This document shows, one piece after another, positions 1-14,150 of a stretch of DNA of 14,150 nucleotides. How positions within the stretch are numbered: position 1 is the first letter of the stretch; every line of letters starts with the position of its first letter. The position numbers were made by a program, and so were the translations under genes. The DNA is from a virus, in UHGV virus genome UHGV-0126890. One strand, given 5' to 3'. The notes beneath the pieces were generated by a model, which saw only the letters and a list, made by a program, of their open reading frames with translations, searched no databases and was not told where the DNA came from.

Positions 1-49
1 ATTAGTTAAATTACTCATATCGCTTCAATTGGCTCTAGTTAACTCTGGT

Positions 50-1045
50 TTATGGACGCATTATGGACATTCCTGACACCGGGTTAAGAGTCACAGCATC
101 TTGTAAGAAATCCGGTGCAAAGTGTGCGTAGGTCATAGTTTGCTGAATGTTAGAATGACCCAGGATGCGCTGCAATGTGATTATGTTACCTCCATTCATT
201 ATAAAATGTGTGGCAAATGTATGCCTCAAAACATGTACTGCTTGTCCGTCAGGTAAATCGGGTTTTACTTCCCTGAGAGCGTTACGCACTTTGTAGTAAC
301 TGGCATTAAAAAGCCTGCCTGAATTTTTGGTCTTGATCCGTTTAATCAGGTCCTGCGAAACGGGAATTGTCCTGCGTTTTCCGTTTTTAGTTTTCATAAA
401 CGTAACCATCTGGTTAATGATGTGTTCAGCTTTTAAATTAGACACTTCACTCCAGCGTCCACCAGTAGAAAGGCAGACCAGAGTTGCATTTAATTCATCA
501 CCATCAAGCATGGATAACAGCCGCGTAATCTCTTCACTGGACAAAAAAGCCATTTCCGTAACAGCTTCACGTAACCGTTTAATATCACGGAACGGGTTGT
601 GGGAGTGGTATTCACCGGCGTCAATTAACTTGGTGAACATCCCGCTCATTATTGCCAGATGTCGATTTACGCTGGCTGGTTTTAGACCATCGTTCATCAT
701 TACAACGCGATAATCAGTTATCGTTTTCTTTGTTAGCTGGTCAGCTCTGGACACTCCCATTTCTGCAAATTTGGCGATTATTGTCGTTAAACGCCCCCGT
801 TCAATATCTCCACGCTCATGTGATTTTCCGTGATATATCCACCATCTACCTAACAACTCTGTAAGAGTTCGGCGGTCGGCTGGTTTCTCCAACCACTCTT
901 TGTTGTGGTAGTTAACCAGTACATGACGTTCGAATGCCTGAGCTTCACCTTTAGTTTTAAATTTCCGCCTGATACGTTTTCCATCTGCACCCTGCGGTCT
1001 GACGTCCACTTCATAACGACCATCATCGAGCTTTTTAATAGACAT
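50..1045 (-). CDS. int: Tyrosine recombinase / phage integrase, P2-family
   Basis: 331-aa ORF. N-terminus MSIKKLDDGRYEVDVRP resembles P2 Int as I recall it. C-terminal catalytic region HVLRHTFATH ... LGHSNIQQTMTYAHF fits the H-x-x-R and tyrosine nucleophile pattern of tyrosine recombinases. ATG at 1043-1045 is preceded by GGAGGG. Sits at the prophage edge next to the repressor, as in P2. Confidence 0.9.
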   Translation of the reverse strand: MSIKKLDDGRYEVDVRPQGADGKRIRRKFKTKGEAQAFERHVLVNYHNKEWLEKPADRRTLTELLGRWWIYHGKSHERGDIERGRLTTIIAKFAEMGVSRADQLTKKTITDYRVVMMNDGLKPASVNRHLAIMSGMFTKLIDAGEYHSHNPFRDIKRLREAVTEMAFLSSEEITRLLSMLDGDELNATLVCLSTGGRWSEVSNLKAEHIINQMVTFMKTKNGKRRTIPVSQDLIKRIKTKNSGRLFNASYYKVRNALREVKPDLPDGQAVHVLRHTFATHFIMNGGNIITLQRILGHSNIQQTMTYAHFAPDFLQDAVTLNPVSGMSIMRP

Positions 1046-1138
1046 AAAGCCCTCCGATGACGCTGTTTACTTCTACTACTTGAAAATTAATGCAATTTTC
1101 TTTCGTACATTTACTACACACATATGCTGAATAAATCG

Positions 1139-1438
1139 TCAGCCAGTCTTCTGGTCTGAGTGGTGCAAGGTTGTTGAGTCTTGCCCAATGTGTGCGAGAG
1201 CCGGGGCTATTTGTCCAGCTGCTGGATCTGTTTCATCAAACATGAACCAGTCACGATACTTGCGAAAGCGTGGATGCTTAAACAGCTTCATACCTGCTTC
1301 CATAGGCATTTTTGATTTTCCTGATTCATATCCATGATATGTGTAGTAATTAATTCCAATTAATTCAGCAAGTTCCTTAGTTTTAAGGCGTTCGGATTCA
1401 CGGATGAGCTTTAGTTTCTCACTTTGTTCACTTGACAT
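1139..1438 (-). CDS. C: Immunity repressor, P2 C-like helix-turn-helix protein
   Basis: 99 aa from the first ATG (1436-1438); the ORF-track start at 1456 is a TTG. HTH-like segment TKELAELIGINYYTYHGYESGKS; C-terminus GQIAPALAHIGQ resembles P2 C as recalled. Divergent from cox across a short intergenic region. Confidence 0.75.
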   Translation of the reverse strand: MSSEQSEKLKLIRESERLKTKELAELIGINYYTYHGYESGKSKMPMEAGMKLFKHPRFRKYRDWFMFDETDPAAGQIAPALAHIGQDSTTLHHSDQKTG

Positions 1439-1531
1439 AATTTTGCTAATCTCCAATTATATTTCTACTTGGCAATTTGTGATTCACTCAAAAAGGCTCT
1501 AGATGGCTCCAGTTGGTGAATCGCAAATCTT
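1439..1531. promoter_or_regulatory. Immunity switch region between C and cox with candidate face-to-face promoters and operator-like repeats
   Basis: Imperfect inverted repeat ATTTGTGATTCAC (1475-1487) / GTGAATCGCAAAT (1516-1528), 12 of 13 complementary. Between them, direct repeats GGCTCTAG (1495-1502) and GGCTCCAG (1505-1512), one helical turn apart. TTGACA at 1432-1437 followed after about 17-19 nt by an AT-rich -10-like hexamer (1455-1462) on the plus strand; TATAAT on the minus strand at 1456-1461. Exact promoter assignment is uncertain. Confidence 0.4.
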
Positions 1532-1546
1532 ATGGAGGATAGCAAA

Positions 1547-1903
1547 GTGACGACAAATGTAGAAATTTCTTGTCCAACTAGCGATGAGGCAAGTTTCGAA
1601 AATGAAGCCAAACGTAAAAGCATTCAGATTTCAGAGCGCCCATCTGATTTGCTGTCGAAAGAAGGTTTTGCTCTTTACATCGGTAAGACACCACGCGCGG
1701 TGGCTGAAATGGCTAAAGCAGGAAAGCTGCCAGCCTTCTACATGACAGACCCATTAAAACCAAGAGGGAAAGCTGAATTATGGATTAATCGCCGTGAGTG
1801 GGACAAGTACGCAGCCCAACTGGTTGATGAAGCTCCGACAGAATGGCATGACTGGAAAAATCGCATTAGTTACAGCAAATCAAGACATGGCCGTGCGGCT
1901 TAA
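1547..1903 (+). CDS. cox: Cox/Apl-like excisionase and transcriptional regulator
   Basis: Open frame 1532-1903. GTG at 1547 has a GGAGGA Shine-Dalgarno 7 nt upstream (1534-1539); the ATG at 1532 lacks one, so the start is ambiguous (1532 or 1547). HTH-like segment FALYIGKTPRAVAEMAKAGKLP and ...MTDP... resemble P2 Cox as recalled. First gene of the rightward early operon, divergent from C. Confidence 0.65.
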   Translation: MTTNVEISCPTSDEASFENEAKRKSIQISERPSDLLSKEGFALYIGKTPRAVAEMAKAGKLPAFYMTDPLKPRGKAELWINRREWDKYAAQLVDEAPTEWHDWKNRISYSKSRHGRAA

Positions 1904-1913
1904 GGTGGAAAGG

Positions 1914-2084
1914 ATGAACGAGCCTCGTTGTATTGCTCAGTTATTGCGTAACGAAAGCCCCAGGGCGATTGACTTTACCATCACCCACGGGAAGGGACGC
2001 AAGGGAATCATTATCCGCACCAAAAAACAGAGTCCGTTAAAAAAGGCTCTGACCTTTCTGAAAAGCCGGAGGATATGGAAATGA
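1914..2084 (+). CDS. Small basic hypothetical protein (position of P2 orf78)
   Basis: ATG at 1914 preceded by AAGGTGGAAAGG just after the cox stop (1901-1903). 56 aa, lysine/arginine-rich. Its stop overlaps the B start in an ATGA arrangement (2081-2084). The longer ORF-track version (from 1794) overlaps cox and is less likely. Confidence 0.45.
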   Translation: MNEPRCIAQLLRNESPRAIDFTITHGKGRKGIIIRTKKQSPLKKALTFLKSRRIWK

Positions 2085-2581
2085 CAGTGATGACGCTCAA
2101 TCTCGTCGAAAAACAGCCAGCAGCTATGCGCCGGATAATTGGTAAGCATCTTGCCGTCCCTCGCTGGCAGGATACATGTGATTATTATAATCAGATGATG
2201 GAGCGCGAACGGCTAACAGTTTGCTTTCATGCGCAGTTAAAACAACGTCACGCAACGATGCGTTTTGAAGAAATGAACGACGTCGAACGTGAACGACTGG
2301 TATGTGCAATTGATGAATTGCGTGGGGCATTCTCAAAACGCCGTCAGGTTGGCGCAAGTGAGTATGCATATATTAGTTTTTTAACAGTCAGTCAGCGTCG
2401 CACTTTATTTATGCACGCACGACTGACAGAAAAAGAATTTAACCAGCCATACTGGCGAATTAATGAAGAATCATGTTACTGGCGTGATGCTTTATTCCGT
2501 GCATTACGTGAATTATTCAGTCTGTTTGAGTATGCACCGACAATTCTGACGTCGGTAAAACCAGAGCAATATCTGCATTAA
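2081..2581 (+). CDS. B: Replication protein B-like (P2 gpB, helicase-loader-like)
   Basis: 166 aa from the ATG at 2081, which has GGAGG 8 nt upstream (2068-2072); the ATG at 2075 has too short a spacer. Length matches P2 B as recalled. Translationally coupled to the upstream ORF. Confidence 0.7.
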   Translation: MTVMTLNLVEKQPAAMRRIIGKHLAVPRWQDTCDYYNQMMERERLTVCFHAQLKQRHATMRFEEMNDVERERLVCAIDELRGAFSKRRQVGASEYAYISFLTVSQRRTLFMHARLTEKEFNQPYWRINEESCYWRDALFRALRELFSLFEYAPTILTSVKPEQYLH

Positions 2582-2644
2582 GTAATTAACCAGAGTTTTT
2601 AACGCACTTAATTGTGCGGGGCTTCTTTTTGCCTGGAGAAAGTC

Positions 2645-2869
2645 ATGCATACAGTTTCTGAAAATCAGTGCGGTATATACGCATTACTGCTGCAACAGGC
2701 CAGAACCGAAGCACAGGCCGACGCTGCGACGCGCTTTTCTTCTCATCTTGACGCCATGATTCGCCACATCACAAAGGCGGAGTTATCCCGCGTGGAGATA
2801 GTCGAGCTGCTCAGTCAGGAGTCGGAAAAATTTCACAATATCGGATTGTCTCGCGGGGAGGTGCTTTGA
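2645..2869 (+). CDS. Small hypothetical early protein (position of P2 orf80)
   Basis: ATG at 2645 preceded by GGAGAAAG; the ORF-track start at 2612 is a TTG. 74 aa. Its stop TGA (2867-2869) overlaps the next ATG (2869-2871). Confidence 0.5.
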
Positions 2870-3171
2870 TGTCCTGTTCTCGTTCAGTTGTATTACTGAA
2901 TAACGCCTTAAAAATCGCCGTTATGGAAAATGGCGATTTGTCTCTTATTCAACTTGGTCTTGATAAAGAAAAGCGCGACATAACTGAATCTGTTATCGCG
3001 ATTTATCAGAGCGAATTAAACCTCCTGTCTGATGTGGTCAATTTACTTGTTAAACGCGCTGTATTTCACAAGCAAATTTCCTCAGTGGATGAACTGACAA
3101 AATTAACGACAGAACTCGCCAGCTATTGCGCTGATGAATTTAAGAAACTGAACGACAAAAGGAACTGGTAA
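2869..3171 (+). CDS. Small hypothetical early protein (position of P2 orf81)
   Basis: ATG at 2869 with GGGGAGGTG upstream; 100 aa. Its stop TAA (3169-3171) overlaps the next ATG (3171-3173). Confidence 0.5.
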   Translation: MSCSRSVVLLNNALKIAVMENGDLSLIQLGLDKEKRDITESVIAIYQSELNLLSDVVNLLVKRAVFHKQISSVDELTKLTTELASYCADEFKKLNDKRNW

Positions 3172-3395
3172 TGCCGGACAACGTAGATTTCATTCAGGAA
3201 CAACAGGCTGAATTACTGGAGCGCCAGATTAACGCGGCAAGGGTAAAACATTGCGGTGCTTCTGCGCTGGTTTGCGAAGAGTGTGACGCGCCAATACCTG
3301 CTGCCCGTCGTGCGGCTTATCCGTCAGCCACGCGTTGTGTTTCCTGTCAGTCAGTCTTTGAAGCAAAAAACAAACATTACCGGAGAACGGCATGA
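3171..3395 (+). CDS. TraR/DksA-family C4 zinc-finger protein (position of P2 orf82)
   Basis: 74 aa with C-x2-C-x17-C-x2-C (CEECDAPIPAARRAAYPSATRCVSCQ), the spacing typical of DksA/TraR-type zinc fingers. ATGA overlap with the next gene at 3392-3395. Confidence 0.65.
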   Translation: MPDNVDFIQEQQAELLERQINAARVKHCGASALVCEECDAPIPAARRAAYPSATRCVSCQSVFEAKNKHYRRTA

Positions 3396-3667
3396 GTATT
3401 CGTATCGAAATTGGCGAACGTTATGTTGTTACCAGTGACAGCTTTCAGTTTATTCTCCACGAGAAAAAGAGAGCGGAAAGCGTTAAAAACGCCGGTCAGG
3501 AATGGCTGGCGGTGGTTGGTTATTACCCGAAATTAAGCCAGCTCGTTTCCGGCCTGATGCATCACGATATTCTGACCGGAAGCGCAAAATCTTTTGCCGA
3601 TTTAAACGCGCAGGTTGAGCAACTCAGCAGGCGTTGTTCAGAGGCTTTTGGCTCATATGGACGTTAA
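3392..3667 (+). CDS. Small hypothetical early protein (position of P2 orf83)
   Basis: ATG at 3392 preceded by GGAGAA; 91 aa; immediately upstream of and overlapping the A gene start. Confidence 0.5.
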   Translation: MSIRIEIGERYVVTSDSFQFILHEKKRAESVKNAGQEWLAVVGYYPKLSQLVSGLMHHDILTGSAKSFADLNAQVEQLSRRCSEAFGSYGR

Positions 3668-5936
3668 AGCCTCCGGGCGTTTTGTCCCTCCGTCAGCATT
3701 TGCCGCAGGCACCGGTAAGGCGTTTACCGGTGCTTATGCATGGAACGCGCCACGCGAGGCTGTCGGGCGCGAAAGACCCCTTACACGTGACGAGATGCGT
3801 CAGGTGCAAGGTGTTTTATCCACGATTAACCGCCTGCCTTACTTTTTGCGCTCGCTGTTTACTTCACGCTATGACTACATCCTGCACAATAAAAGCCCGG
3901 TGCACGGGTTTTATTTCCTCACATCCACTTTTCAGCGTCGTTTATGGCCGCGCATTGAGCGTGTGAATCAGCGCCATGAAATGAACACCGACGCGTCGTT
4001 GCTGTTTCTGGCAGAGCGTGACCACTATGCGCGCCTGCCGGGAATGAATGACAAGGAGCTGAAAAAGTTTGCCGCCCGTATCTCATCGCAGCTTTTCATG
4101 ATGTATGAGGAACTCAGCGATGCATGGGTGGATGCACATGGCGAAAAAGAATCGCTGTTTACGGATGAGGTGCAGGCTCACCTCTATGGTCATGTTGCTG
4201 GCGCTGCACGTGCTTTCAATATTTCCCCGCTTTACTGGAAAAAATACCGTAAAGGACAGATGACCACGAGGCAGGCATATTCTGCCATTGCCCGTCTGTT
4301 TAACGATGAGTGGTGGACTCATCAGCTCAAAGGCCAGCGTATGCGCTGGCATGAGGCGTTACTGATTGCTGTCGGGGAGGTCAATAAAGACCGTTCTCCT
4401 TATGCCAGTAAACATGCCATTCGTGATGTGCGTGCACGCCGCCAGGCAAATCTGGAATTTCTTAAATCGTGTGACCTCGAAAACAGGGAAACCGGCGAGC
4501 GCATCGACCTTATCAGTAAGGTGATGGGCAGTATTTCTAATCCTGAAATTCGCCGGATGGAGCTGATGAACACAATCGCCGGTATTGAGCGTTACGCCGC
4601 CGCAGAGGGTGATGTGGGGATGTTTATCACGCTGACCACGCCGTCAAAGTATCACCCGACACGTCAGGTCGGAAAAGGAGAAAGTAAAACCGTCCAGCTT
4701 AATCACGGCTGGAACGATGAGGCATTTAATCCAAAGGATGCGCAGCGTTATCTCTGCCGTATCTGGAGCCTGATGCGCACGGCATTCAAGGATAATGATT
4801 TACAGGTCTACGGTTTGCGAGTCGTCGAGCCACACCACGACGGAACGCCGCACTGGCATATGATGCTTTTTTGTAATCCACGCCAGCGTAACCAGATTAT
4901 TGAAATCATGCGTCGCTACGCGCTCAAAGAGGATAGCGACGAAAGAGGAGCTGCGCGAAACCGTTTTCAGGCAAAACACCTTAACCGGGGCGGTGCTGCG
5001 GGATATATCGCGAAATACATTTCAAAAAACATCGACGGCTATGCACTGGATGGTCAGCTCGATAACGATACCGGCAGGCCGCTGAAAGACACTGCCGCGG
5101 CTGTTACCGCATGGGCGTCAACGTGGCGCATTCCGCAATTTAAAACTGTTGGCCTGCCGACAATGGGGGCTTACCGTGAACTACGCAAATTACCTCGCGG
5201 CGTCAGCATTGCTGATGAGTTTGACGAACGTGTCGAGGCTGCACGCGCTGCCGCAGACAGTGGCGATTTTGCGCTGTATATCAGCGCGCAGGGTGGGGCA
5301 AATGTCCCGCGCGATTGTCAGACTGTCAGGGTCGCCCGTAGTCCGTCGGATGAAGTTAACGAGTACGAGGAAGAAGTCGAGAGAGTGGTCGGCATTTACG
5401 CGCCGCATCTCGGCGCGCGTCATATTCATATCACCAGAACGACGGACTGGCGCATTGTGCCGAAAGTTCCGGTCGTGGAGCCTTTGACTTTAAAAAGCGG
5501 CATCGCCGCGCCTCGGAGTCCTGTCAATAACTGTGGAACGCTCACCGGTGGTGATACTTCGTTACCGGCTCCCACACCTTCTGAGCACGCCGCAGCAGTG
5601 CTTAATCTGGTTGATGACGGTGTCATCGAATGGAGTGACCCGGAGGTCGTGAGGGCGCTCAGGGGTGCATTAAAACACGGACTGAGAAGACCAAACCGCC
5701 AGCAAAGAAACGGAAGCCCGTTAAAACCGCATGAAATAGCGCCATCGGCCAGACTGACCCGGTCGGAACGAATGCAAATTCCCCGTATCCGCGTTGACCT
5801 TGCTCAGAACGGTATCAGGCCGCAGCGATGGGAGCTTGAGGCGCTGGCGCGTGGCGCGACCGTAAATTATGACGGGAAAAAATTCGCTTATCCGGTCGCT
5901 GATGGATGGCCAGGGTTCACAACTGTAATAGATTGA
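3657..5936 (+). CDS. A: Rolling-circle replication initiator (P2 gpA-like HUH endonuclease)
   Basis: Long ORF; first ATG at 3657 gives 759 aa (the ORF-track start at 3615 is a TTG). HUH motif in GTPHWHMMLF. Paired-tyrosine motif YIAKYISKN typical of rolling-circle initiators. Strong resemblance to P2 A as recalled. Confidence 0.85.
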   Translation: MDVKASGRFVPPSAFAAGTGKAFTGAYAWNAPREAVGRERPLTRDEMRQVQGVLSTINRLPYFLRSLFTSRYDYILHNKSPVHGFYFLTSTFQRRLWPRIERVNQRHEMNTDASLLFLAERDHYARLPGMNDKELKKFAARISSQLFMMYEELSDAWVDAHGEKESLFTDEVQAHLYGHVAGAARAFNISPLYWKKYRKGQMTTRQAYSAIARLFNDEWWTHQLKGQRMRWHEALLIAVGEVNKDRSPYASKHAIRDVRARRQANLEFLKSCDLENRETGERIDLISKVMGSISNPEIRRMELMNTIAGIERYAAAEGDVGMFITLTTPSKYHPTRQVGKGESKTVQLNHGWNDEAFNPKDAQRYLCRIWSLMRTAFKDNDLQVYGLRVVEPHHDGTPHWHMMLFCNPRQRNQIIEIMRRYALKEDSDERGAARNRFQAKHLNRGGAAGYIAKYISKNIDGYALDGQLDNDTGRPLKDTAAAVTAWASTWRIPQFKTVGLPTMGAYRELRKLPRGVSIADEFDERVEAARAAADSGDFALYISAQGGANVPRDCQTVRVARSPSDEVNEYEEEVERVVGIYAPHLGARHIHITRTTDWRIVPKVPVVEPLTLKSGIAAPRSPVNNCGTLTGGDTSLPAPTPSEHAAAVLNLVDDGVIEWSDPEVVRALRGALKHGLRRPNRQQRNGSPLKPHEIAPSARLTRSERMQIPRIRVDLAQNGIRPQRWELEALARGATVNYDGKKFAYPVADGWPGFTTVID

Positions 5937-6042
5937 AATAGTGTGAATATCTAAGAGATAAAACTATATAAGGTGTGTATTAATACTGTGCTGGAGGAAA
6001 AGGTGAAAACCAGATGGCATGGCTACAATAATAAAACGATAA

Positions 6043-6071
6043 GCCTCATTTTTAATGAGGCCGTTTTTATT
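6043..6071. terminator. Hairpin terminator between the convergent A gene and the cargo operon, possibly bidirectional
   Basis: 8-bp stem GCCTCATT (6043-6050) / AATGAGGC (6054-6061) with a 3-nt loop, followed by CGTTTTTATT on the plus strand; the minus-strand side is followed by a moderately T-rich tract. Lies about 100 nt after the A stop and 30 nt after the stop of the 6102-6773 gene. Confidence 0.55.
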
Positions 6072-6101
6072 ACATCAAAAGAATTGAATTGTATTGTTAA
6101 C

Positions 6102-6773
6102 TTAAAGGGCAAACCTTTCTATGGTTCGATACACCTTGTCAAAAATTTGCTCTGAAAGTGAAATGGACCCATTTGTGTTAATTTCTAATGACTCATAACC
6201 GGTAACGTCCTTAACATTAAGTTTAACTTTATCAATTGTAAAATTTGCATTTTTGAAAATGTTTCTTATTTCCATAAGTGCGTCACTTGATGACTCAAGT
6301 TCCAGTATGCCGGATGTGTGTTTGCTAAACGTTAAGTCTTTTAATTTTGCCTTGTGCACTTGTATTTTTTCAAAGTGCGGGGTCAGGAAATAAATGAAGT
6401 CCTCAATTTTGATGTTGAGATTTGACACATTAAAATCAGAATGTGTTGATTTAATTATGTTTGATATGAAGTTCTTAATGCTTCTGGGAGGCGACTCAAT
6501 GATTAAGATGAAGTTTTTACCTTTTGTTGTGTAAAGCCAAAAGTTAAATTGAATATATTTTAGCTGTGTATATTGAGTCTCGTTTCCATATGGATCAACG
6601 ATTATCTCGTTGACCTCTACTTTCTCGATGTATCGAGATGATATTGCATTTTCTTCATATGAGTTGATACTAAATCCCCAGCCTTTATCACTATCAAAAG
6701 GAGTGTTAATGATAGACTGATATAAACTATCAAGTCCAGCAGGGAAGTTGGCAGTAAACCATTTTGTTTTCAT
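6102..6773 (-). CDS. Hypothetical protein, third gene of the AT-rich cargo operon; no family recognised
   Basis: 223-aa ORF in very AT-rich DNA, where long open frames are unlikely by chance. ATG at 6771-6773 with AAGGAG 6 nt upstream. Starts 11 nt after the stop of the upstream gene. No P-loop or other motif I can name. Confidence 0.75.
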   Translation of the reverse strand: MKTKWFTANFPAGLDSLYQSIINTPFDSDKGWGFSINSYEENAISSRYIEKVEVNEIIVDPYGNETQYTQLKYIQFNFWLYTTKGKNFILIIESPPRSIKNFISNIIKSTHSDFNVSNLNIKIEDFIYFLTPHFEKIQVHKAKLKDLTFSKHTSGILELESSSDALMEIRNIFKNANFTIDKVKLNVKDVTGYESLEINTNGSISLSEQIFDKVYRTIERFAL

Positions 6774-6784
6774 AACAACTCCTT

Positions 6785-7897
6785 TTATTTATCAGTAACA
6801 ACCTCAATTGTGTTGGAGGCGATAATACTGTTTGAAATTTCGCGAGCGGTTTTTTCAAGTGCTAATAATAGCAGTTTTTCCTTCTCTTTATCTACATTTT
6901 GACGATTTGCATATTCGTTTATATTTTTGTACTTATAAACACCGCGAACGATATACGAGAATAACTTGCAATTATCTGGGTCGACAAATTGAGCCTCGAA
7001 TTCATATTTGTCCGAGTCTTTATAAGTGTCAACAACAGAACTCCAAATGATTTTGGTAATATAAAATCCTTTTCCTAACAACTCCTTAAACTCGAGAGAG
7101 TCAAGAACGCTGCGCCCTTTTAGTGAAGCTTTGGAGATATGATATCCTGTGTCAATAATTGTATCGTCATCATCAGAATCATCTTCATTTTCGTTAGACT
7201 TATTTGACTCAAGAATTGGATGCGTAACGTATACATCCGATACGTCAATGCATTTGTAGTTAGGTATGCTTGAGATTAGTTGCTCAAAAAATTTGCTTCT
7301 TTCCGCTGGTGATTTAACAGTTTCGAGCGAAATCTCATCAAGACTGGCTGGATCCTCATTGTTGTCTTCTTTGATCTTCTCCACGAGGCGCTCGTTGAAT
7401 TCCCTTGCTTTAGCATTTTGAGGGAAACGGGTGATAAATTCACCGCTTTCATTCATTTCAACTTGTATTTTGGCTTCACGTGATGAGGATTGGCGAAACT
7501 CGCTCATTTTGAAATCTAGTTTCACATATTTTATTGATACTTCAAAACCATTCTCGGTGTAATTTATATTAGTTATATCGCCTTCTTTTTGAAGATCTTC
7601 ACAAATAGATTTAATAGTATTTTCCATACTATTTTTATCTATATTTGTATTAATAATGTTAATTGATACTTTTTCTCTCCGCCCAACAGAACCGAGTATG
7701 TTTGAAAGAAATTCAAAATCAGAATAGCCATGATAGTATCTGGAAAAATCCAAAGCCAATGTTTTTCGTTTAGTCTCTTTGGATATAATCATTCCTCTTT
7801 TAAAAAAGAGACTTTTCATATCTTCATGAGTGACTTTAGTTTGATTCAATGCGTCAAACATTGCCTTATCATTTACACTATATAATCCAATTTTCAT
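6785..7897 (-). CDS. Hypothetical protein, second gene of the AT-rich cargo operon; contains an acidic tract; no family recognised
   Basis: 370 aa from the first ATG (7895-7897), which overlaps the stop of the upstream gene in an ATGA arrangement; the ORF-track start at 7912 is a TTG. Acidic stretch NENEDDSDDDD. No Walker A motif. Confidence 0.75.
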   Translation of the reverse strand: MKIGLYSVNDKAMFDALNQTKVTHEDMKSLFFKRGMIISKETKRKTLALDFSRYYHGYSDFEFLSNILGSVGRREKVSINIINTNIDKNSMENTIKSICEDLQKEGDITNINYTENGFEVSIKYVKLDFKMSEFRQSSSREAKIQVEMNESGEFITRFPQNAKAREFNERLVEKIKEDNNEDPASLDEISLETVKSPAERSKFFEQLISSIPNYKCIDVSDVYVTHPILESNKSNENEDDSDDDDTIIDTGYHISKASLKGRSVLDSLEFKELLGKGFYITKIIWSSVVDTYKDSDKYEFEAQFVDPDNCKLFSYIVRGVYKYKNINEYANRQNVDKEKEKLLLLALEKTAREISNSIIASNTIEVVTDK

Positions 7898-8958
7898 GCC
7901 TGTCGCTCCCAACCAATCTCTACCGAACTAAAACGAGGCTTTGTAAATTCTACCTGTTGAAAATCAATAGCATCTATTATCGTTTTTTTATGTTCATCGA
8001 ACCCCCATTCTTGACAATAACTATCCTTCGCACGCATAAAAATACTGCGAACATCTTTATGTATGTTAGGGTTAACTATTCTAATTCTTATATTTTCATT
8101 GCCATCCAGTAATTGATATTTAGATAGTGTGTCCAGAATGTAAATAAACTCTAGCTCGTTTTTTCCTTCGCCATTGTAATAAATAATGTAACCATGTTTA
8201 AATGTGGTTTCCCATTGTGATGTTTCTTCATTGCAATGTCTGACGTCATTATGTTTTATAATAAGGAATGGGCCTGTCAATAATTCTACAGTTGCTGGAA
8301 GTTCTTCGGGCGAACCGCTTACTTTATGTAGTGAAAGGTCTGGGTAAAAGAATTGATATTTTTTACCGAGTGGAAACTCTCTTTTGTGGCTTAGTTGTGA
8401 TAAATCGCAGATTATTGACTGCAGGTAGTTTATAGTTCTTGGTTCAATAATGTGTATTTTTTGACCGACCCTTACCGGTATATTGTCAAGATTGATACCT
8501 CTTTTCTTCTTATCAGTTTCAGTATTGTGAGACTGATAGAATACATCATAAAAAGATTGGTCAAAGTCTCCGTCATGGTTGTATACAAAGAGCATGCCTC
8601 TGACTTCTGACGCACCACTTTTATAAGAATAACGCTCCTTCCATTCTTTACAACCTTGAGCACAGTCAATAGAATTAGCCAGCGATACTAAAGCATTGCG
8701 CATTTTAGTTGCTGTAATTGAGCCTTTAATATAGCTTTTTAAATCAGTATTTAAAAAAATGGTTCTATTCAAATAGGGATCTTTATAAGAAAATACAACA
8801 TCAGTTGGATGTGTTCCGGCTAGTGTTTTATGTTGATCTTTTTTCATGCATGGAAAGTTTTCATTGGTTGGACCAACGAGTTCCCACTTAAACCATTTGA
8901 ATAGGTCTGAAGATATTTTTTCTGCCATTGCTGAAATATTTTGAGTTTCACCTGACAT
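7894..8958 (-). CDS. Hypothetical protein, first gene of the AT-rich cargo operon; possible nuclease or nucleotidyltransferase-like motifs (speculative)
   Basis: 354-aa ORF. ATG at 8956-8958 with an AGGT-type Shine-Dalgarno about 7 nt upstream. No Walker A. HPTD followed 21 residues later by DLK is compatible with a PD-(D/E)xK pattern; KSGAS ... DGDFD is loosely compatible with a nucleotidyltransferase GS ... DxD pattern. Both are unverified pattern matches. Confidence 0.75.
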   Translation of the reverse strand: MSGETQNISAMAEKISSDLFKWFKWELVGPTNENFPCMKKDQHKTLAGTHPTDVVFSYKDPYLNRTIFLNTDLKSYIKGSITATKMRNALVSLANSIDCAQGCKEWKERYSYKSGASEVRGMLFVYNHDGDFDQSFYDVFYQSHNTETDKKKRGINLDNIPVRVGQKIHIIEPRTINYLQSIICDLSQLSHKREFPLGKKYQFFYPDLSLHKVSGSPEELPATVELLTGPFLIIKHNDVRHCNEETSQWETTFKHGYIIYYNGEGKNELEFIYILDTLSKYQLLDGNENIRIRIVNPNIHKDVRSIFMRAKDSYCQEWGFDEHKKTIIDAIDFQQVEFTKPRFSSVEIGWERQA

Positions 8959-9196
8959 GATAATTACCTATATATATTTTGTATAAATCCCTATGAGCCA
9001 TAACTCTTATGAACCACATGTAACAACGTGGGGCATATTATGGCTAATCGATCTGTACCATAATTTCATCATTCTTGCATCATCTTGAATGAATTCGCAT
9101 GCTTACGCCATATCCATATCAAAACATCAATGTCAACAATGGCGCGGATTCGGCTAAATCATGCAACTGCATTAAAATCGCCCCATGAAGCGGGCG

Positions 9197-9215
9197 GGCG
9201 AGGCGGGGAAAGCAC
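9197..9215. other. Candidate cos site (P2-type 19-nt cohesive end)
   Basis: GGCGAGGCGGGGAAAGCAC matches the P2 cohesive-end sequence as I recall it. It lies between the hotspot and the Q gene, the expected position in a P2 prophage. Flanked on the Q side by GC-rich DNA containing a direct repeat CGTGATGACG (9265-9274 and 9342-9351). Confidence 0.6.
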
Positions 9216-9357
9216 TGCGCGCTGGCGGTGGTGCTGATTTTATTTTTTCAGCGTCTGAGCGCGCCGTGATGACGTTTAGATTGTTAGCCGGGGCGTTGGT
9301 GTGTCTGCGGGATGTTTTGTGCGGTGGTGAGCGTGTGAGGGCGTGATGACGGGGGGT

Positions 9358-9380
9358 AAAAAAGCCGCCCGCAGGCGGCG
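9358..9380 (-). terminator. Rho-independent terminator downstream of Q
   Basis: On the minus strand: GCCGCC / GGCGGC 6-bp GC stem with a 4-nt loop, followed by a run of six U (plus-strand A-run 9358-9363), immediately after the Q stop codon (9385-9387). Confidence 0.6.
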
Positions 9381-9384
9381 ATGT

Positions 9385-10419
9385 TCAGTCGTTGTCAGTG
9401 TCCAGTGAGTAGTTTTTAAAGCGGATGACCTCCTGACCGAGCCAGCCGTTTATTTCCCGAATCCTGTCTTGTAGCGGGATAAGCTCATTGCGGACAAAGA
9501 CCTTTGCCACTTTCTCAATATCGCCCAGCGACCCGACGTTCTCCGGCTTGCCGCCCATCAACTGAAAGGGGATGCGGTGCGCATCCAGCAGGTCAGCGGC
9601 GCTGGCTTTTTTGATATTAAAAAAATCGTCCTTCGTTGCCACTTCACTGAGCGGAATAATTTTAATGCCGTCAGCTTTCCCCTGTGGGGCATAGAGAAAC
9701 AGGTTTTTAAAGTTGTTGCGGCCTTTCGACTTCACCATGTTTTCGCGGAGCATTTCGATATCGTTGCGATCCTGCACGGCATCGGTGACGTACATGATGT
9801 ATCCGGCATGTGCGCCGTTTTCGTAATACTTGCGGCGGAACAGCGTGGCCGACTCATTCAGCCAGGCAGAGTTAAGGGCGCTGAGATATTCCGGCAGACC
9901 GTACAGCTCCTGATTAATATCCGGCTCCAGCAGGTGAAACACGGAGCCGGGCGCGAAAGGTGTCGGCTCGTTGAAGGACGGCACCCACCAGTAAACATCC
10001 TCCTCCACGCCACGGCGGGTATATTTTGCCGGTGAGGTTTCCAGTCTGATGACCTTACCGGTGGTGCTGTATCGCTTTTCCAGAAACGCATTACCGAACA
10101 CCAGAAAATCCAGCACAAAGCGGCTGAAATCCTGCTGGGAAAGCCACGGATGCGGGATAAATGTCGACGCCAGAATATTGCGTTTGACGTAAATCGGCGA
10201 GCTGTGATGCACGGCAGCACGCAGGCTTTTTGCCAGACCGGTAAAGCTGACCGGTGGCTCATACCATCTGCCGTTACTGATGCACTCGACGTAATCCAGA
10301 ATGTCACGCCGGTCGAGTACCGGCACCGGCTCACCAAAGGTGAATGCCTCCATTTTCGGGGCGCTGGCGGTCATTTTTTTTGCCGCAGGTTGCGGTGTTT
10401 TCCCTTTTTTCTTGCTCAT
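9385..10419 (-). CDS. Q: Portal protein (P2 gpQ-like)
   Basis: 344 aa, the length of P2 Q, with N-terminus MSKKKGKTPQPAAK and overall resemblance to P2 Q as recalled. Its ATG (10417-10419) overlaps the stop of the upstream terminase gene by 1 nt, as in the P2 PQ operon. Confidence 0.9.
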   Translation of the reverse strand: MSKKKGKTPQPAAKKMTASAPKMEAFTFGEPVPVLDRRDILDYVECISNGRWYEPPVSFTGLAKSLRAAVHHSSPIYVKRNILASTFIPHPWLSQQDFSRFVLDFLVFGNAFLEKRYSTTGKVIRLETSPAKYTRRGVEEDVYWWVPSFNEPTPFAPGSVFHLLEPDINQELYGLPEYLSALNSAWLNESATLFRRKYYENGAHAGYIMYVTDAVQDRNDIEMLRENMVKSKGRNNFKNLFLYAPQGKADGIKIIPLSEVATKDDFFNIKKASAADLLDAHRIPFQLMGGKPENVGSLGDIEKVAKVFVRNELIPLQDRIREINGWLGQEVIRFKNYSLDTDND

Positions 10420-11360
10420 CAGTAAAACTCCAGAATGGTGGATGTCAGCGGGGTGCTGATACCGGCGGTGAGTGGCTCATTTAACAGGGCGTGCATGGTC
10501 GCCCAGGCGAGGTCGGCGTGGCTGGCTTCCTCGCTGCGGCTGGCCTCATAGGTGGCACTGCGTCCGCTGCTGGTCATGGTCTTGCGGATAGCCATAAACG
10601 AGCTGGTGATGTCGGTGGCGCTGACGTCATATTCCAGACAGCCACGGCGGATAACGTCTTTTGCCTTGAGCACCATTGCGGTTTTCATTTCCGGCGTGTA
10701 GCGGATATCGCGCGCGGCGGGATAGAACGAGCGCACGAGCTGGAACACGCCGACACCGAGGCCGGTGGCATCAATTCCGATGTATTCGACGTTGTATTTT
10801 TCGGTGAGTTTGCGGATGGATTCCGCCTGGGTGGCAAAGTCCATGCCTTTCCACTGGTGACGCTCAAGTATTCTGAATTTGCCACCGGCCACCACCGGCG
10901 GTGCCAGTACCACGCATCCGGCGCTGTCGCCACGGTGTGACGGGTCGTAACCAATCCATACCGGGCGGGAGCCGAACGGATTGGCGGCAAACGGCGCATA
11001 GTCTTCCCATTCTTCCAGCGTGTCGACCATGCAGCGTTGCAGCTCCTCGAACGGGAACACCGACGCCTTGTCGTCAACAAATTCACACATGAACAGGTTT
11101 TTAAAATCGTCGGCGCTGTTTTCACGTTTGAGCTGCTCAATGTCGAACAGTGTGCAGCCACCTTTCAGGGCGTCCTCAATGGTAACAATCTGCCGCCACT
11201 GGCCGTCCGCACAGAGAAGACCTCCGGCAAGGGCGTTATGACTGACGTCGATTTCCACGCGTTCGGCGGCGCTGGCGCGTCCCCGGTTGAACAGTTCACC
11301 CGACCAGAACGGGTAAGGTACTGCATACCCATAAACACCCCGGCGACAGCGGCGGCACAA
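10419..11360 (-). pseudogene. P: 5'-truncated terminase large subunit (P2 gpP-like), nuclease domain only
   Basis: Open frame of about 313 codons ending 1 nt into Q. Contains terminase nuclease-domain-like aspartate motifs (VWIGYDPSHRGDSAG, YIGIDATGLGVG) but no Walker A/B ATPase region. P2-family large terminases are about 590 aa. The frame runs open to 11384 with no ATG or RBS; the ORF-track start is a TTG. Upstream it abuts W instead of the divergent late promoter region and gene O. Confidence 0.7.
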
Positions 11361-11373
11361 CCGGGAGTCCTCT

Positions 11374-11721
11374 ATGACAGCGCGTTATCTCGGAATGAAT
11401 CGCAGTGATGGCCTGACTGTCACTGACCTTGAACATATCAGCCAGAGTATCGGCGATATCCTGCGCACACCGGTCGGCTCACGGGTGATGCGTCGTGATT
11501 ACGGCTCGTTGCTGGCGTCAATGATTGACCAGCCGCAGACCCCGGCGCTTGAGTTGCAGATTAAGGTCGCCTGTTACATGGCAGTGCTGAAATGGGAACC
11601 CCGCGTCACCCTGTCATCCGTCACCACTGAGCGCAGTTTTGACGGGCGAATGACGGTCACGTTAACCGGCCAGCACAACGACACCGGCCAGCCACTTTCG
11701 TTAACCATCCCTGTGAGTTGA
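11374..11721 (+). CDS. W: Baseplate wedge protein (P2 gpW-like, gp25-like)
   Basis: 115 aa, the length of P2 W; ATG at 11374 with GGGAG 6 nt upstream; followed 4 nt later by J, matching the P2 gene order W-J-I-H. Confidence 0.85.
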   Translation: MTARYLGMNRSDGLTVTDLEHISQSIGDILRTPVGSRVMRRDYGSLLASMIDQPQTPALELQIKVACYMAVLKWEPRVTLSSVTTERSFDGRMTVTLTGQHNDTGQPLSLTIPVS

Positions 11722-11725
11722 AATC

Positions 11726-12634
11726 ATGCCGATTATCGACCTGAACCAGCTACCCGCACCGGATGTGGTCGAGGAGCTGGACTTTGAAACCATTCTCGCC
11801 GAACGCAAGGCGACACTGATTTCCCTTTACCCGGAAGACCAGCAGGAGGCGGTCGCCCGTACCCTGACGCTGGAATCTGAGCCTCTCGTCAAGCTGCTGG
11901 AGGAAAATGCTTATCGTGAGCTTATCTGGCGTCAGCGTGTGAATGAGGCCGCACGGGCGGTGATGCTGGCCTGTGCTGCCGGTAATGACCTTGATGTGAT
12001 TGGTGCCAATTACAACACCACGCGCCTGACTATCACCCCGGCAGATGATTCGACCATCCCGCCGACACCGGCAGTGATGGAGTCTGACACCGATTATCGT
12101 CTGCGTATTCAGCAGGCGTTTGAGGGCTTAAGCGTCGCCGGGTCGGTGGGAGCCTATCAGTATCATGGTCGCAGTGCCGACGGGCGTGTCGCGGATATCT
12201 CTGTCACCAGTCCGTCTCCGGCCTGCGTCACCATCTCTGTGCTGTCACGTGAAAATAACGGTGTCGCATCCGAAGACCTGCTGGCGGTGGTGCGTAACGC
12301 CCTGAATGGCGAGGACGTCAGGCCGGTGGCCGACCGCGTGACCGTGCAGTCTGCCGCCATCGTTGAATACCAGATAAACGCCACGCTTTACCTTTACCCT
12401 GGTCCCGAAAGCGAACCCATCCGCGCTGCCGCCGTGAAAAAACTGGAAGCGTACATCACGGCACAGCACCGGCTGGGGCGTGACATCCGTCTGTCTGCCA
12501 TTTATGCCGCTTTGCATGTGGAAGGCGTGCAGCGTGTCGAACTGGCTGCACCGCTGGCCGACATCGTGCTCAACAATACGCAGGCGTCTTTCTGTACCGA
12601 ATACAGCGTCGTGACCGGAGGCTCGGATGAGTGA
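11726..12634 (+). CDS. J: Baseplate assembly protein J (P2 gpJ-like)
   Basis: 302 aa, the length of P2 J; positioned between W and I; overlaps the I start by 8 nt. Confidence 0.85.
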   Translation: MPIIDLNQLPAPDVVEELDFETILAERKATLISLYPEDQQEAVARTLTLESEPLVKLLEENAYRELIWRQRVNEAARAVMLACAAGNDLDVIGANYNTTRLTITPADDSTIPPTPAVMESDTDYRLRIQQAFEGLSVAGSVGAYQYHGRSADGRVADISVTSPSPACVTISVLSRENNGVASEDLLAVVRNALNGEDVRPVADRVTVQSAAIVEYQINATLYLYPGPESEPIRAAAVKKLEAYITAQHRLGRDIRLSAIYAALHVEGVQRVELAAPLADIVLNNTQASFCTEYSVVTGGSDE

Positions 12635-13238
12635 TTCGCGACTGCTGCCGACCGGCTCATCACCGCTTGAGGTCGCCGCCGCAAAAGCCTGTGCGGAAAT
12701 TGAAAAAACGCCGGTCTGTATTCGTGAGCTGTGGAACCCGAATACCTGTCCGGCAAATCTGCTGCCGTGGCTGGCGTGGGCGTTTTCTGTTGACCGCTGG
12801 GATGATAAGTGGCCGGAAGCGACAAAACGCGCTGTTATCCGCGATGCGTATTTCATTCACTGCCATAAGGGCACTATCGGTGCGATCCGGCGTGTGGTGG
12901 AGCCGCTCGGCTATCTGATTGAGGTGAGGGAGTGGTGGCAGCTCAACGAGGAGCCGGGGACGTTCTGTATCGTTGTTGGTGTGCTTGAGCAGGGTATTAC
13001 CGAAGAAATGTATCAGGAGCTGGAGCGTCTTGTTGCTGATGCAAAACCGGCGAGCCGCCATCTGACGGGACTGGCTATCAGTTTAAGTACAACCGGCAAC
13101 ATTTTTGCCGGTGCGGGATGCTATCACGGTGACGCCCTGACGGTTTATCCCTACACCCCGGAGGCCATTATTGTCGGAGGGGATTATTTCCCGGCCTCGG
13201 CCATTCATTTAATTGATAACCTGAGAGTAAACGCATGA
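12627..13238 (+). CDS. I: Baseplate/tail protein I (P2 gpI-like)
   Basis: 203-aa ORF starting MSDSRLLPTGSSPLEVAAAKA; resembles P2 I as recalled. Its stop (13236-13238) overlaps the next ATG (13235-13237). Confidence 0.8.
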   Translation: MSDSRLLPTGSSPLEVAAAKACAEIEKTPVCIRELWNPNTCPANLLPWLAWAFSVDRWDDKWPEATKRAVIRDAYFIHCHKGTIGAIRRVVEPLGYLIEVREWWQLNEEPGTFCIVVGVLEQGITEEMYQELERLVADAKPASRHLTGLAISLSTTGNIFAGAGCYHGDALTVYPYTPEAIIVGGDYFPASAIHLIDNLRVNA

Positions 13239-14150
13239 CAGTGAAATACTACGCCATTCTGACTAATCAGGGCGCAGCACGGCTGGTTAACGCGACGATG
13301 CTCGGCAGTAAGCTGAATCTGACGCAAATGGCCGTTGGTGATGCGAATGGTGTATTACCGACACCAGACCCGGCACAGACAAAACTGATTAACCAGAAAC
13401 GCATCGCGCCGCTTAATCTTCTGAGTGTTGACCCGAACAACCAGAGCCAGATTATTGCTGAGCAAATTATCCCTGAGAACGAGGGCGGATTCTGGATCCG
13501 TGAGATTGGGCTTTATGATGATGAAGGCGTACTCATTGCGGTGGCGAACTGCCCGGAAACGTACAAACCGCAGTTACAGGAAGGCAGTGGACGCACCCAG
13601 ACTATCCGCATGATTCTGGTTGTCACGAATACCGAAGCTATCACGCTGAAAATCGACCCGTCGGTGGTACTGGCGACCCGTAAATACGTGGATGATGAAG
13701 TCCTGGAAATAAAGCTGTATGTGGATGACCAGATGAAAAACCACATTGTCGCACAGGATCCTCATACCCAGTATGCACAGAAACATAATCCGACATTTAC
13801 CGGAGAACCAAAAGCGCCGACGCCTGCCGCAGGAAATAACACCACGCGGATTGCGACAACTGCGTTTGTACAGGCTGCTATTACCGCTCTGATTGACGGT
13901 GCGCCAGCCACGCTGGACACGCTGAAGGAAATTGCAGCAGCTATCAACAATGACCCGAAATTCAGCACCACCATAAACAATGCGCTGTCAGGTAAGCAAC
14001 CACTGGATGAGACGCTGACTCATTTGAGTGGAAAGGATGTTGCCGGTCTTCTCGCATACCTTGGTTTGGTGGATGATTCCGGTGTAGTAGGCCGCTTGCT
14101 TAATACTCAAGTGATTACCTCATCTGGTACTTACACCCCAACACCGGGTA
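13235..14150 (+). CDS. H: Tail fibre protein (P2 gpH-like), N-terminal part; continues beyond the window
   Basis: Frame open from the ATG at 13235 to the end of the window (305 codons, no stop), so absent from the ORF track. N-terminal segments MAVGDANGVLPTPDPAQT, GGFWIREIGLYDDEGVLIAVAN and KPQLQEGSGRTQTIRM parallel the conserved N-terminus of P2 H as recalled. Confidence 0.8.
   Translation, partial: MTVKYYAILTNQGAARLVNATMLGSKLNLTQMAVGDANGVLPTPDPAQTKLINQKRIAPLNLLSVDPNNQSQIIAEQIIPENEGGFWIREIGLYDDEGVLIAVANCPETYKPQLQEGSGRTQTIRMILVVTNTEAITLKIDPSVVLATRKYVDDEVLEIKLYVDDQMKNHIVAQDPHTQYAQKHNPTFTGEPKAPTPAAGNNTTRIATTAFVQAAITALIDGAPATLDTLKEIAAAINNDPKFSTTINNALSGKQPLDETLTHLSGKDVAGLLAYLGLVDDSGVVGRLLNTQVITSSGTYTPTPG

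Follow-up and report, generated by a model that had tools for sequence, protein, structure and literature searches.

The DNA analysed here, a stretch of 14,150 nucleotides that we refer to as the window, contains a P2-like prophage from which an internal block of 7.8 kb is absent between the terminase gene P and the baseplate spike gene V. The prophage is inserted at the start of pflA, within the first codons of that gene, in E. coli, and a single base, number 584, distinguishes the window from E. coli AST46 (NZ_AP043639.1), with an E154 to D difference in the integrase. The element is an ordinary defective P2-like prophage inherited by one bacterial clone, and as such another case of known prophage decay that involves neither a new mechanism nor a new gene family.

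We are highly confident in an account made up of a single deletion at a short homology, vertical clonal descent and ordinary decay. One illegitimate, RecA-independent event would have taken the 7.8 kb out of a P2-like (Peduovirus) prophage, fusing codon 293 of the leftward gene P to the final 66 nt of the rightward gene V at a common GGTA. The product would be a 23.5-kb defective prophage with no heads, no tails, no packaging and no lysis, in which int, C, cox, the replication genes, cos, the tail genes of the F operon, ogr and the 3HP defence cassette were kept. It would then have been transmitted vertically within one E. coli clone, and further, independent damage inside that clone would represent an early stage of ordinary prophage decay. 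Evidence contradicting the deletion was not found in the analysis.

Breakpoints and the missing block

The breakpoints were read directly from megablast and blastn alignments of the window to P2 (NC_001895) and to the intact prophage that occupies the same site in strain 14EC001 (NZ_CP024127.1). Window positions 9197-11315 align to P2 1-2117, comprising Q and the 3' half of P, and positions 11312-13063 align to P2 10878-12629. Homology to P ends at 11315, in codon 293 of 590, and homology to V begins at 11312. The two alignments share the junction itself (11312-11315, no strand assigned), a 4-nt microhomology, GGTA, that is found at both parental breakpoints. It lies 59-62 nt upstream of the ATG of W. 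A preliminary description of this DNA had joined the truncated P directly to W. The two genes do stand back-to-back, with W starting at 11374, but the true partner of P is the end of V. The V remnant (11316-11377, plus strand) consists of the final 20 codons and the stop of the spike gene, its stop overlaps the start of W as ATGA, the entire V-matching stretch covers 66 nt (11312-11377), and its translation is the exact C-terminus of V, ending in KVLHTHKHPGDSGGTTGSPL before the stop codon.

Relative to the intact 14EC001 prophage the absent block measures 7,811 bp (14217-22027 of that locus, L003), and relative to P2 it measures 8,764 bp, the larger figure arising because P2 also has orf30. 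The large internal gap that had been described earlier is thus real, but its size is 7.8 kb (8.8 kb in P2 coordinates) and not about 7 kb. It spans codon 292 of P to codon 190 of V, and its content could be read directly from the annotations of the intact references, P2 and the 14EC001 prophage. Missing are the 5' half of P, which is the DNA-binding and ATPase half, the genes O, N, M and L for scaffold, capsid, small terminase and head completion, the lysis cassette Y, K, lysA, lysB and lysC, the genes X, R and S, and 90% of V. Also inside the interval are the divergent, Ogr-dependent P/O promoter region and the V promoter region, both of which had been proposed to be lost.

In the annotation of the P2 record X, R and S are essential tail genes, V acts in baseplate assembly, and Y and K are essential for lysis. 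The late genes that a functional phage needs, among them P, O, N, M, L, X, Y, K, R, S and V, are not all present, and the element is a defective derivative and not a functional member of the group. Judged by gene content it is unable to make heads, to package DNA or to lyse, in agreement with the earlier claim, as all capsid and lysis genes fall within the missing interval; with the loss of X, R, S and V tails should likewise be impossible, a point that the preliminary description did not make.

As for the route of the deletion, the 4-nt microhomology by itself suggests slippage or end-joining at that position. Among the complete genomes searched, no intact prophage was found that is identical to the presumed parent over the late region, the best matches reaching no more than about 98% identity over Q-P' and W-H (P' denotes the remnant of P). 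The closest candidate for the parent, locus L015, is 99.94% identical over window positions 1-9000, but only about 97% over Q-P'.

The terminase remnant and the retained genes

P' consists of the 3' 897 nt of the gene for the terminase large subunit (10419-11315, minus strand) and encodes residues 293-590 of 590. Its alignment with an intact gpP of 590 amino acids extends over 298 residues and is 100% identical to residues 293-590. The Terminase_6C nuclease domain is complete (E = 1.1e-47, profile positions 1-154 of 155), whereas of the Terminase_6N ATPase profile only positions 143-215 of 215 are left and positions 2-142 are absent. Terminase_5, the N-terminal helix-turn-helix, has no profile match in P', while the intact gpP shows all three domains. 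The Walker-A-like motif SRQIGAT (167-173) and the motif LYVDE (250-254) of gpP fall within the deleted half. P' thus has the nuclease domain of a gpP-type terminase but lacks the helix-turn-helix region and an ATPase with Walker A and B motifs, and the preliminary description was correct in assigning nuclease motifs without ATPase motifs to it. The public PGAP annotation already flags P as a pseudogene, 'incomplete; missing N-terminus'.

The open frame of P' does run on toward W, as had been noted, and reaches 11360, 14 nt short of the ATG. It does not lack a start codon, however. The junction creates an extension of 15 codons (11316-11360, minus strand), and these 45 nt are antisense V; the frame begins with a TTG that has GAGGA upstream. 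Together with P' they form an ORF of 313 amino acids that gene callers do call and that we used as a lineage marker.

The existence of this ORF, with its start codon and upstream GAGGA, and the presence of genes for sheath, tube, tape-measure and fibre might be taken to indicate that the locus is not a deletion product at all, and that it represents either a naturally short, nuclease-only terminase large subunit of about 310 residues or a headless, tailocin-like locus for a contractile tail. To this we assign a vanishingly small probability. The protein cluster of the junction ORF has 9,487 members, of which the representative and most of those listed are 590 amino acids long, P' equals residues 293-590 of such a protein, and the ORF opens with 15 codons of antisense V. 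The deleted interval contains the spike gene V, X, R, S and all of the lysis cassette. We rejected both versions in view of the gene content and the alignments; the normal length of the terminase in this lineage, 590 residues, also answers the objection from natural short terminases.

The deletion separates two groups of late genes from their promoter regions. On the minus strand the portal gene Q (9385-10419, 344 amino acids) is intact and is followed just 3' by a terminator-like hairpin (9364-9379, minus strand) at the position of the annotated tQ terminator of P2. On the plus strand the baseplate genes W (11374-11721), J (11726-12634) and I (12627-13238) are intact and cut off from the deleted promoter of the V operon, and the 5' part of the tail-fibre gene H (13235-14150) continues beyond the end of the window. 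A consensus scan, which models Ogr-dependent promoters poorly, found no sigma-70-like promoter in window positions 9000-12000, and the sole TGT-N12-ACA in the window falls within W. A new promoter created at the junction was considered and rejected on these two results. The earlier suggestion that P'-Q and W-J-I-H are promoter-less fits both the coordinates and the scan, and from the consensus scans P'-Q and W-G are predicted to be transcriptionally silent, with read-through from elsewhere being possible.

Upstream of the late region the window holds an intact integrase gene (50-1045, minus strand), the intact gene of a C-like helix-turn-helix immunity repressor of 99 amino acids (1139-1438, minus strand; annotated by PGAP in the AST46 record, L002 10040-10339) and that of an intact excisionase and regulator of the Cox family (1532-1903, plus strand). 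The early replication genes from B to A (2081-5936, plus strand) are all intact and 96.7% identical to P2, in the order B, DUF2732, DUF5405, zinc-finger protein, DUF5405 and replication endonuclease A. PGAP does not annotate orf78, yet it is intact at 1914-2084, and a disruption of orf78, which we had considered, was dropped on this ground. None of the retained genes contains a stop or a frameshift. Compared with relatives they differ mostly at synonymous positions, with 74 synonymous versus 13 nonsynonymous codon differences counted over Q, P', W, J and I.

Recurrence of the junction, clonal descent and the hotspot cargo

The same 40-nt junction was observed in nine fetched loci besides AST46 (NCBI, ENA and Logan assemblies), and an exact-protein look-up placed the 313-residue junction ORF on 23 public contigs. 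The junction loci show 0-2 mismatches and at most one gap relative to AST46 over 10-21 kb, and every one that reaches the left end adjoins pflA. Carriers are 99.97-100% identical to the window and to one another, and with such near-identity of all of them they therefore form one clonal lineage.

The junction was found in just one of 5,426 complete RefSeq E. coli genomes, 1,728 of which have a matching Q-P region, and the exact 40-nt sequence is absent from the collections genome_contigs (one genome per species), viral_contigs and JGI metagenome_contigs. Such rarity might point to an assembly artefact, that is, a mis-join or the collapse of a repeat, for which we see practically no chance: the nine fetched loci come from different pipelines and include isolates as well as gut metagenomes, only 4 nt are common to both breakpoints, and in AST46, where the Q-P' and W-H queries each match only once, there is no further P2-like copy of these regions to be collapsed. 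The single matches also make it unlikely that another locus there encodes the lost ATPase half of P together with capsid and lysis genes and so complements the element. The support for the junction is thus its recurrence in independent assemblies of isolates and gut metagenomes rather than read coverage, and this recurrence disposes of the objection that an assembly error had produced it. The idea of a private or artefactual junction, suggested by the three empty collections, was dropped after the ORF had been located on 23 contigs, and that of a very recent, strain-private deletion, suggested by the single complete genome, was replaced by the clonal lineage. Decay has continued within this lineage: in CP056263.1 an IS1 sits within the cargo gene Hp2, and SRR25872169 has lost a stretch of 3,239 bp that runs from FII to T.

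The cargo in the hotspot comprises three genes on the minus strand (6102-8958), Hp3 (6102-6773), Hp2 (6785-7897) and Hp1 (7894-8958), which lie side by side between A, ending at 5936, and cos, starting at 9197. They match the PADLOC profiles PDLC03004, PDLC03005 and PDLC03006 (E-values of 2e-63, 3.7e-37 and 6e-8 for the three profiles), and the cargo thus matches the known three-gene 3HP defence system; protection by the allele found here is a prediction. From the naming and a citing table, we take the Hp1-3 of PADLOC to be the Rousset three-gene system. A three-gene system from the P2 hotspot without clear predicted domains is reported to protect against P1 (Rousset et al. 2022, PMC9122126); the name 3HP does not occur in the main text of that paper, and it is this description that provides the connection.

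The preliminary description had read the element as a domesticated remnant that is maintained for its cargo. In this case selection for 3HP, for immunity or for other genes would keep the deleted element; in a variant of the idea the loss of lysis and capsid genes would itself be favored, removing the risk of prophage-induced death. We do not uphold this reading and consider it unlikely. Most carriers have an undamaged cargo, whose three proteins match the profiles of a system reported to be protective against P1, but Q, P', W, J and I, which are of no use any more, show no more damage than the cargo does, and in CP056263.1 it is the cargo that the IS1 has entered. The deletion did take out exactly the cell-killing functions. 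Nevertheless, carriers that are 99.97-100% identical require no selection for keeping anything, and therefore no time has elapsed over which selection might have left a readable trace. A published study describes P2-like elements that are defective yet conserve their defence genes, and poses their domestication as an open question (PMC13586616, NAR 2026), but the same cargo is also present in intact P2-like prophages (L004 and L012) and is not specific to remnants. For its host the element may be neutral or beneficial.

The 19-nt cohesive end of cos (9197-9215, no strand assigned; GGCGAGGCGGGGAAAGCAC) matches P2 in 19 of 19 positions, according to the annotation int, C, cox, B, A and ogr are intact, and the element lies between att-like repeats. 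With cos, int, cox, A, B and ogr kept, a superinfecting P2-like helper that supplies heads, terminase and the missing tail parts could therefore package the 23.5-kb genome, and the element would be a helper-dependent, mobilisable and satellite-like one. Heads of P2 size have room for P4 dimers of about 23 kb. If true, mobilisation by a heteroimmune P2-like helper would spread the 3HP cassette without the risk of self-induced lysis. The examined carriers, however, are near-identical and have the element at one chromosomal site, a pattern of vertical descent and not of transfer, and a helper of the same immunity would probably be blocked by the resident repressor. P4-like satellites have a small gene set of their own, with for instance a primase and genes for capsid-size determination, lack structural genes and are moved by a helper phage. 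In the element all annotated genes are of P2 type, many structural genes remain and all carriers share one site, which shows no sign of mobility. We consider mobilisation improbable, and vertical descent of a prophage damaged by one deletion is the reading that we retain.

Beyond bookkeeping the finding has little significance, and tools for prophage prediction and annotation should rate the element as defective. The exact junction is a handy clonal marker for one E. coli lineage in isolates and human-gut metagenomes. The lineage forms a small, datable decay series, with a large deletion followed by IS1 in the cargo of one member and by a tail-gene deletion in another, and could inform whether defence genes outlast their phage vehicles.

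Comparison with known systems

P2 and intact P2-like prophages have the same gene order as the element, int-C-cox-B-A-hotspot-cos-Q-P and V-W-J-I-H. A total of 155 phage records match the window, and both the synteny and identity with P2-like phages (Peduovirus) and the P2-type cos place it in this group. Shared segments are 95-97.7% identical at the nucleotide level, with an identical cos; blastn against NC_001895 gives 96.7% for B-A, 97.1% for cos-Q-P' and 94.8% for V'-W-J-I (V' denotes the remnant of V). The element and the 14EC001 prophage also agree in their integrase, repressor and Cox proteins and in the site at which they are integrated. What sets the element apart from P2 and from this prophage is the missing 7.8-kb block with heads, lysis, X, R, S, V and the two late promoter regions, and it carries 3HP in the hotspot where the known system has tin/old. 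The 3HP system of PMC9122126 resembles the cargo found here in its three co-oriented genes between A and cos.

The defective elements of PMC13586616 are similar in that core genes are inactivated while the defence cassette is nearly identical to that of intact elements. For those no fixed pattern of core-gene loss was reported, whereas the element described here has one mapped deletion with a junction that can be traced as a clonal marker, and the later damage includes the defence cassette itself. R-type tailocins are likewise headless and have genes for sheath, tube, tape-measure, baseplate and fibre. In contrast to the element, which has lost V, X, R, S and the lysis genes and in which the W-G operon is left without its promoter, they have all their tail genes and a lysis cassette, controlled by regulation of their own.

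The breakpoint between P and V

The portal gene (344 aa, 9385-10419, minus strand), an open frame of 313 aa (10419-11360, minus strand) and W (11374-11721, plus strand), which is followed by J and I in the same direction, were located by an ORF listing and a Pfam scan. On P2 (NC_001895) this region resolves into two blocks, with window 9197-11315 corresponding to P2 1-2117 and window 11312-13063 to P2 10878-12629. The same blocks lie at 12062-14216 and 22024-24405 in the locus of the intact prophage of strain 14EC001 (NZ_CP024127.1), which occupies the same insertion site and encodes identical integrase, repressor and Cox proteins. Viewed base by base, the left parent reads ...CCAGAACGGGTA|GGCG at the breakpoint, the right parent ...TCAAACGGTA|AGGTAC and the window CCAGAACGGGTAAGGTAC, so that the crossover lies within the shared GGTA at 11312-11315; an imperfect AACGG(G)TA surrounds this microhomology. 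The deleted block amounts to 7,811 bp with respect to 14EC001 and to 8,764 bp with respect to P2, where orf30 is extra. A single short-homology deletion would be the simplest origin of the junction; the four shared nucleotides are observed directly, and the molecular route would presumably have been slippage or end-joining.

In the 313-aa frame the Terminase_6C nuclease domain is complete, but the Terminase_6N ATPase profile is matched over its final third alone. Over 298 aligned residues the identity with residues 293-590 of an intact terminase of 590 aa is 100%; in that protein Terminase_5/HTH spans 12-69 and Terminase_6N 164-386. The sequences SRQIGAT (167-173) and LYVDE (250-254), which by analogy with T4-type terminases we take to be the Walker A-like and Walker B motifs, fall in the deleted half of P. 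The 62 nt from the junction to W code for the exact C-terminus of V, whose stop overlaps the W start in the same arrangement as in P2, and the P' frame remains open across antisense V to a TTG at 11360 that is preceded by GAGGA. The 313-aa frame is a by-product of the junction, yet it is usable as a unique marker. The preliminary description, an internal deletion joining a truncated P to the baseplate region, was right in structure and needs small corrections only: the joint is real, but the partner of P is the 3' end of V rather than W itself, the truncated frame does have a possible start codon, and the large block that is gone measures 7.8 kb rather than roughly 7 kb.

Recurrence of the junction and chromosomal setting

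The chromosome of E. coli AST46 (NZ_AP043639.1) matches the window except at position 584, an A in the window and a C in AST46 (Int E154D). The window variant recurs only in a gut-metagenome contig (L013, ERR2017459), and it is probably this sublineage, not AST46, to which the window belongs. The prophage sits between pflA and pflB and measures about 23.5 kb between att-like repeats, the window spanning its left 14 kb. In the PGAP annotation integrase, repressor, Cox and the replication genes come first, followed by three hypothetical genes and the portal. Next come a terminase pseudogene labelled 'incomplete; missing N-terminus' and an ORF of 18 aa; W, J and I precede the fibre genes, and the series continues with sheath, tube, tape measure, U, D and ogr. 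Queries with Q-P' and with W-H each returned one match in AST46, at the prophage locus, and there is therefore no second P2-like copy of those regions in this genome.

The junction occurs in one of 5,426 complete RefSeq E. coli genomes, 1,728 of which have a matching Q-P region, and its 40-nt sequence had no match in genome_contigs (one genome per species), viral_contigs or the JGI metagenome_contigs. An exact protein look-up placed the 313-aa ORF on 23 contigs, which derive from NCBI, ENA and Logan. Apart from AST46, nine fetched loci from distinct samples contain the 40-nt string (gut metagenome ROBE23-1, GCA_048338255.1, SRR413624, SRR35795892, SRR25872169, VATA22-2, ERR2017459, CP056263.1 and GCA_047852845.1). 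They differ from AST46 by 0-2 mismatches and at most one gap over 10-21 kb, and wherever the locus extends to the left end, pflA adjoins the integrase. Near-identity in independent samples at a common site establishes that the junction is real and marks one clonal lineage. An otherwise sibling prophage (L015, GCA_037523015.1), compared with window 1-11315, shows 5 mismatches over 1-9000 and about 64 over 9000-11000, placing a mosaic (recombination) boundary near cos, where the early/cargo half meets the late half.

The att-like sites lie at 8842-8863 and 32397-32419 of the AST46 locus, with attL just left of window position 1, and the insertion point is in the first codons of pflA. On the attR side, adjoining pflB, ATG TCA GTT ATT GG is still present, while attL has AAG in place of ATG, and the PflA annotated by PGAP, whose gene shares the strand of int and follows it directly, carries a phage-derived N-terminal extension of 20 residues. 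Because of this replacement and extension, pflA expression in lysogens may depend on phage sequence. An intact orf78-like gene of 56 codons (1914-2084, plus strand) between cox and B is annotated in 14EC001 but missing from the AST46 annotation. Beyond the window, at the Z/fun position in the gap between the fibre genes and FI (24205-25628 of the AST46 locus), the second P2 hotspot holds an acyltransferase-family gene along with a helix-turn-helix pseudogene that is truncated.

Functions lost and retained

The lost content was read from the P2 and 14EC001 annotations over the deleted interval. It comprises codons 1-292 of P; the transcription starts of P and O with their shared activator site; the genes O, N, M, L, X, Y, K, lysA, lysB, lysC, R and S; and, from V, the activator site, the transcription start and everything but the last 21 codons of the gene. 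Among the parts kept are the hairpin downstream of Q and the cos site, which agrees with P2 at 19/19 positions, and the F operon and ogr fall outside the deletion. The gene content predicts an element unable to assemble heads or tails, to package DNA or to lyse the cell. The Ogr-dependent promoters of P'-Q and W-J-I-H-G are gone, a consensus scan of 9000-12000 returned no sigma-70-like site, and TGT-N12-ACA occurs just once in the window, inside W, all of which makes transcriptional silence of both gene groups likely.

The cargo and the nature of the element

The three hotspot genes on the minus strand (6102-8958) match PADLOC Hp3 (6102-6773), Hp2 (6785-7897) and Hp1 (7894-8958). They correspond to a three-gene P2-hotspot system with reported protection against P1 (PMC9122126), for which the name 3HP is taken from a table in a citing work. 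The precomputed Pfam hits of the collection assign Hp1 a PDDEXK_GAPS4 nuclease domain (PF26115), a match that did not appear with the local copy of Pfam.

The preliminary description held that the element is maintained for this cargo, a reading that the comparisons argue against. The cassette is present at 99-100% identity in nine other complete genomes, in one of which (CFSAN061763) it lies within a P2-like prophage that is fully intact and occupies another att site, and the exact Hp1 protein is found in an intact pflA-site prophage (L012) as well as in GCA_037523015.1, whose sequence runs on through the P breakpoint. Relative to 14EC001, the Q, P', W, J and I of the window show 74 synonymous and 13 nonsynonymous codon differences and no stops; the dead genes are preserved as well as the cargo. 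Furthermore, CP056263.1 carries within Hp2, equivalent to window 7063-7071, a 768-bp IS1, recognised by its terminal repeats and by ORFs resembling InsA/InsB, with a 9-bp target duplication (AAAATCCTT), and the defence cassette is thereby inactivated in this carrier. A second deletion of 3,239 bp with a 2-nt microhomology, equivalent to 27091-30329 of the AST46 locus, runs from within the tube gene FII to the end of the tape-measure gene T in SRR25872169, a Logan assembly to be read with caution. The pattern is one of young, unselected decay, and selection for the cargo is neither required nor demonstrated. Defective P2-like elements in which defence genes are conserved have already been described in a recent survey, where their domestication is left as a question (PMC13586616).

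Compared with known systems, the element shows no sign of the mobility of a phage satellite, and it is not a tailocin, as it lacks spike, tail-completion and lysis genes. It also falls short of a functional phage, and its terminase remnant falls short of the gpP type in the ATPase. It belongs to the P2-like prophages as a defective member, an ordinary one inactivated by deletion, whose terminase pseudogene was already flagged in the public annotation.
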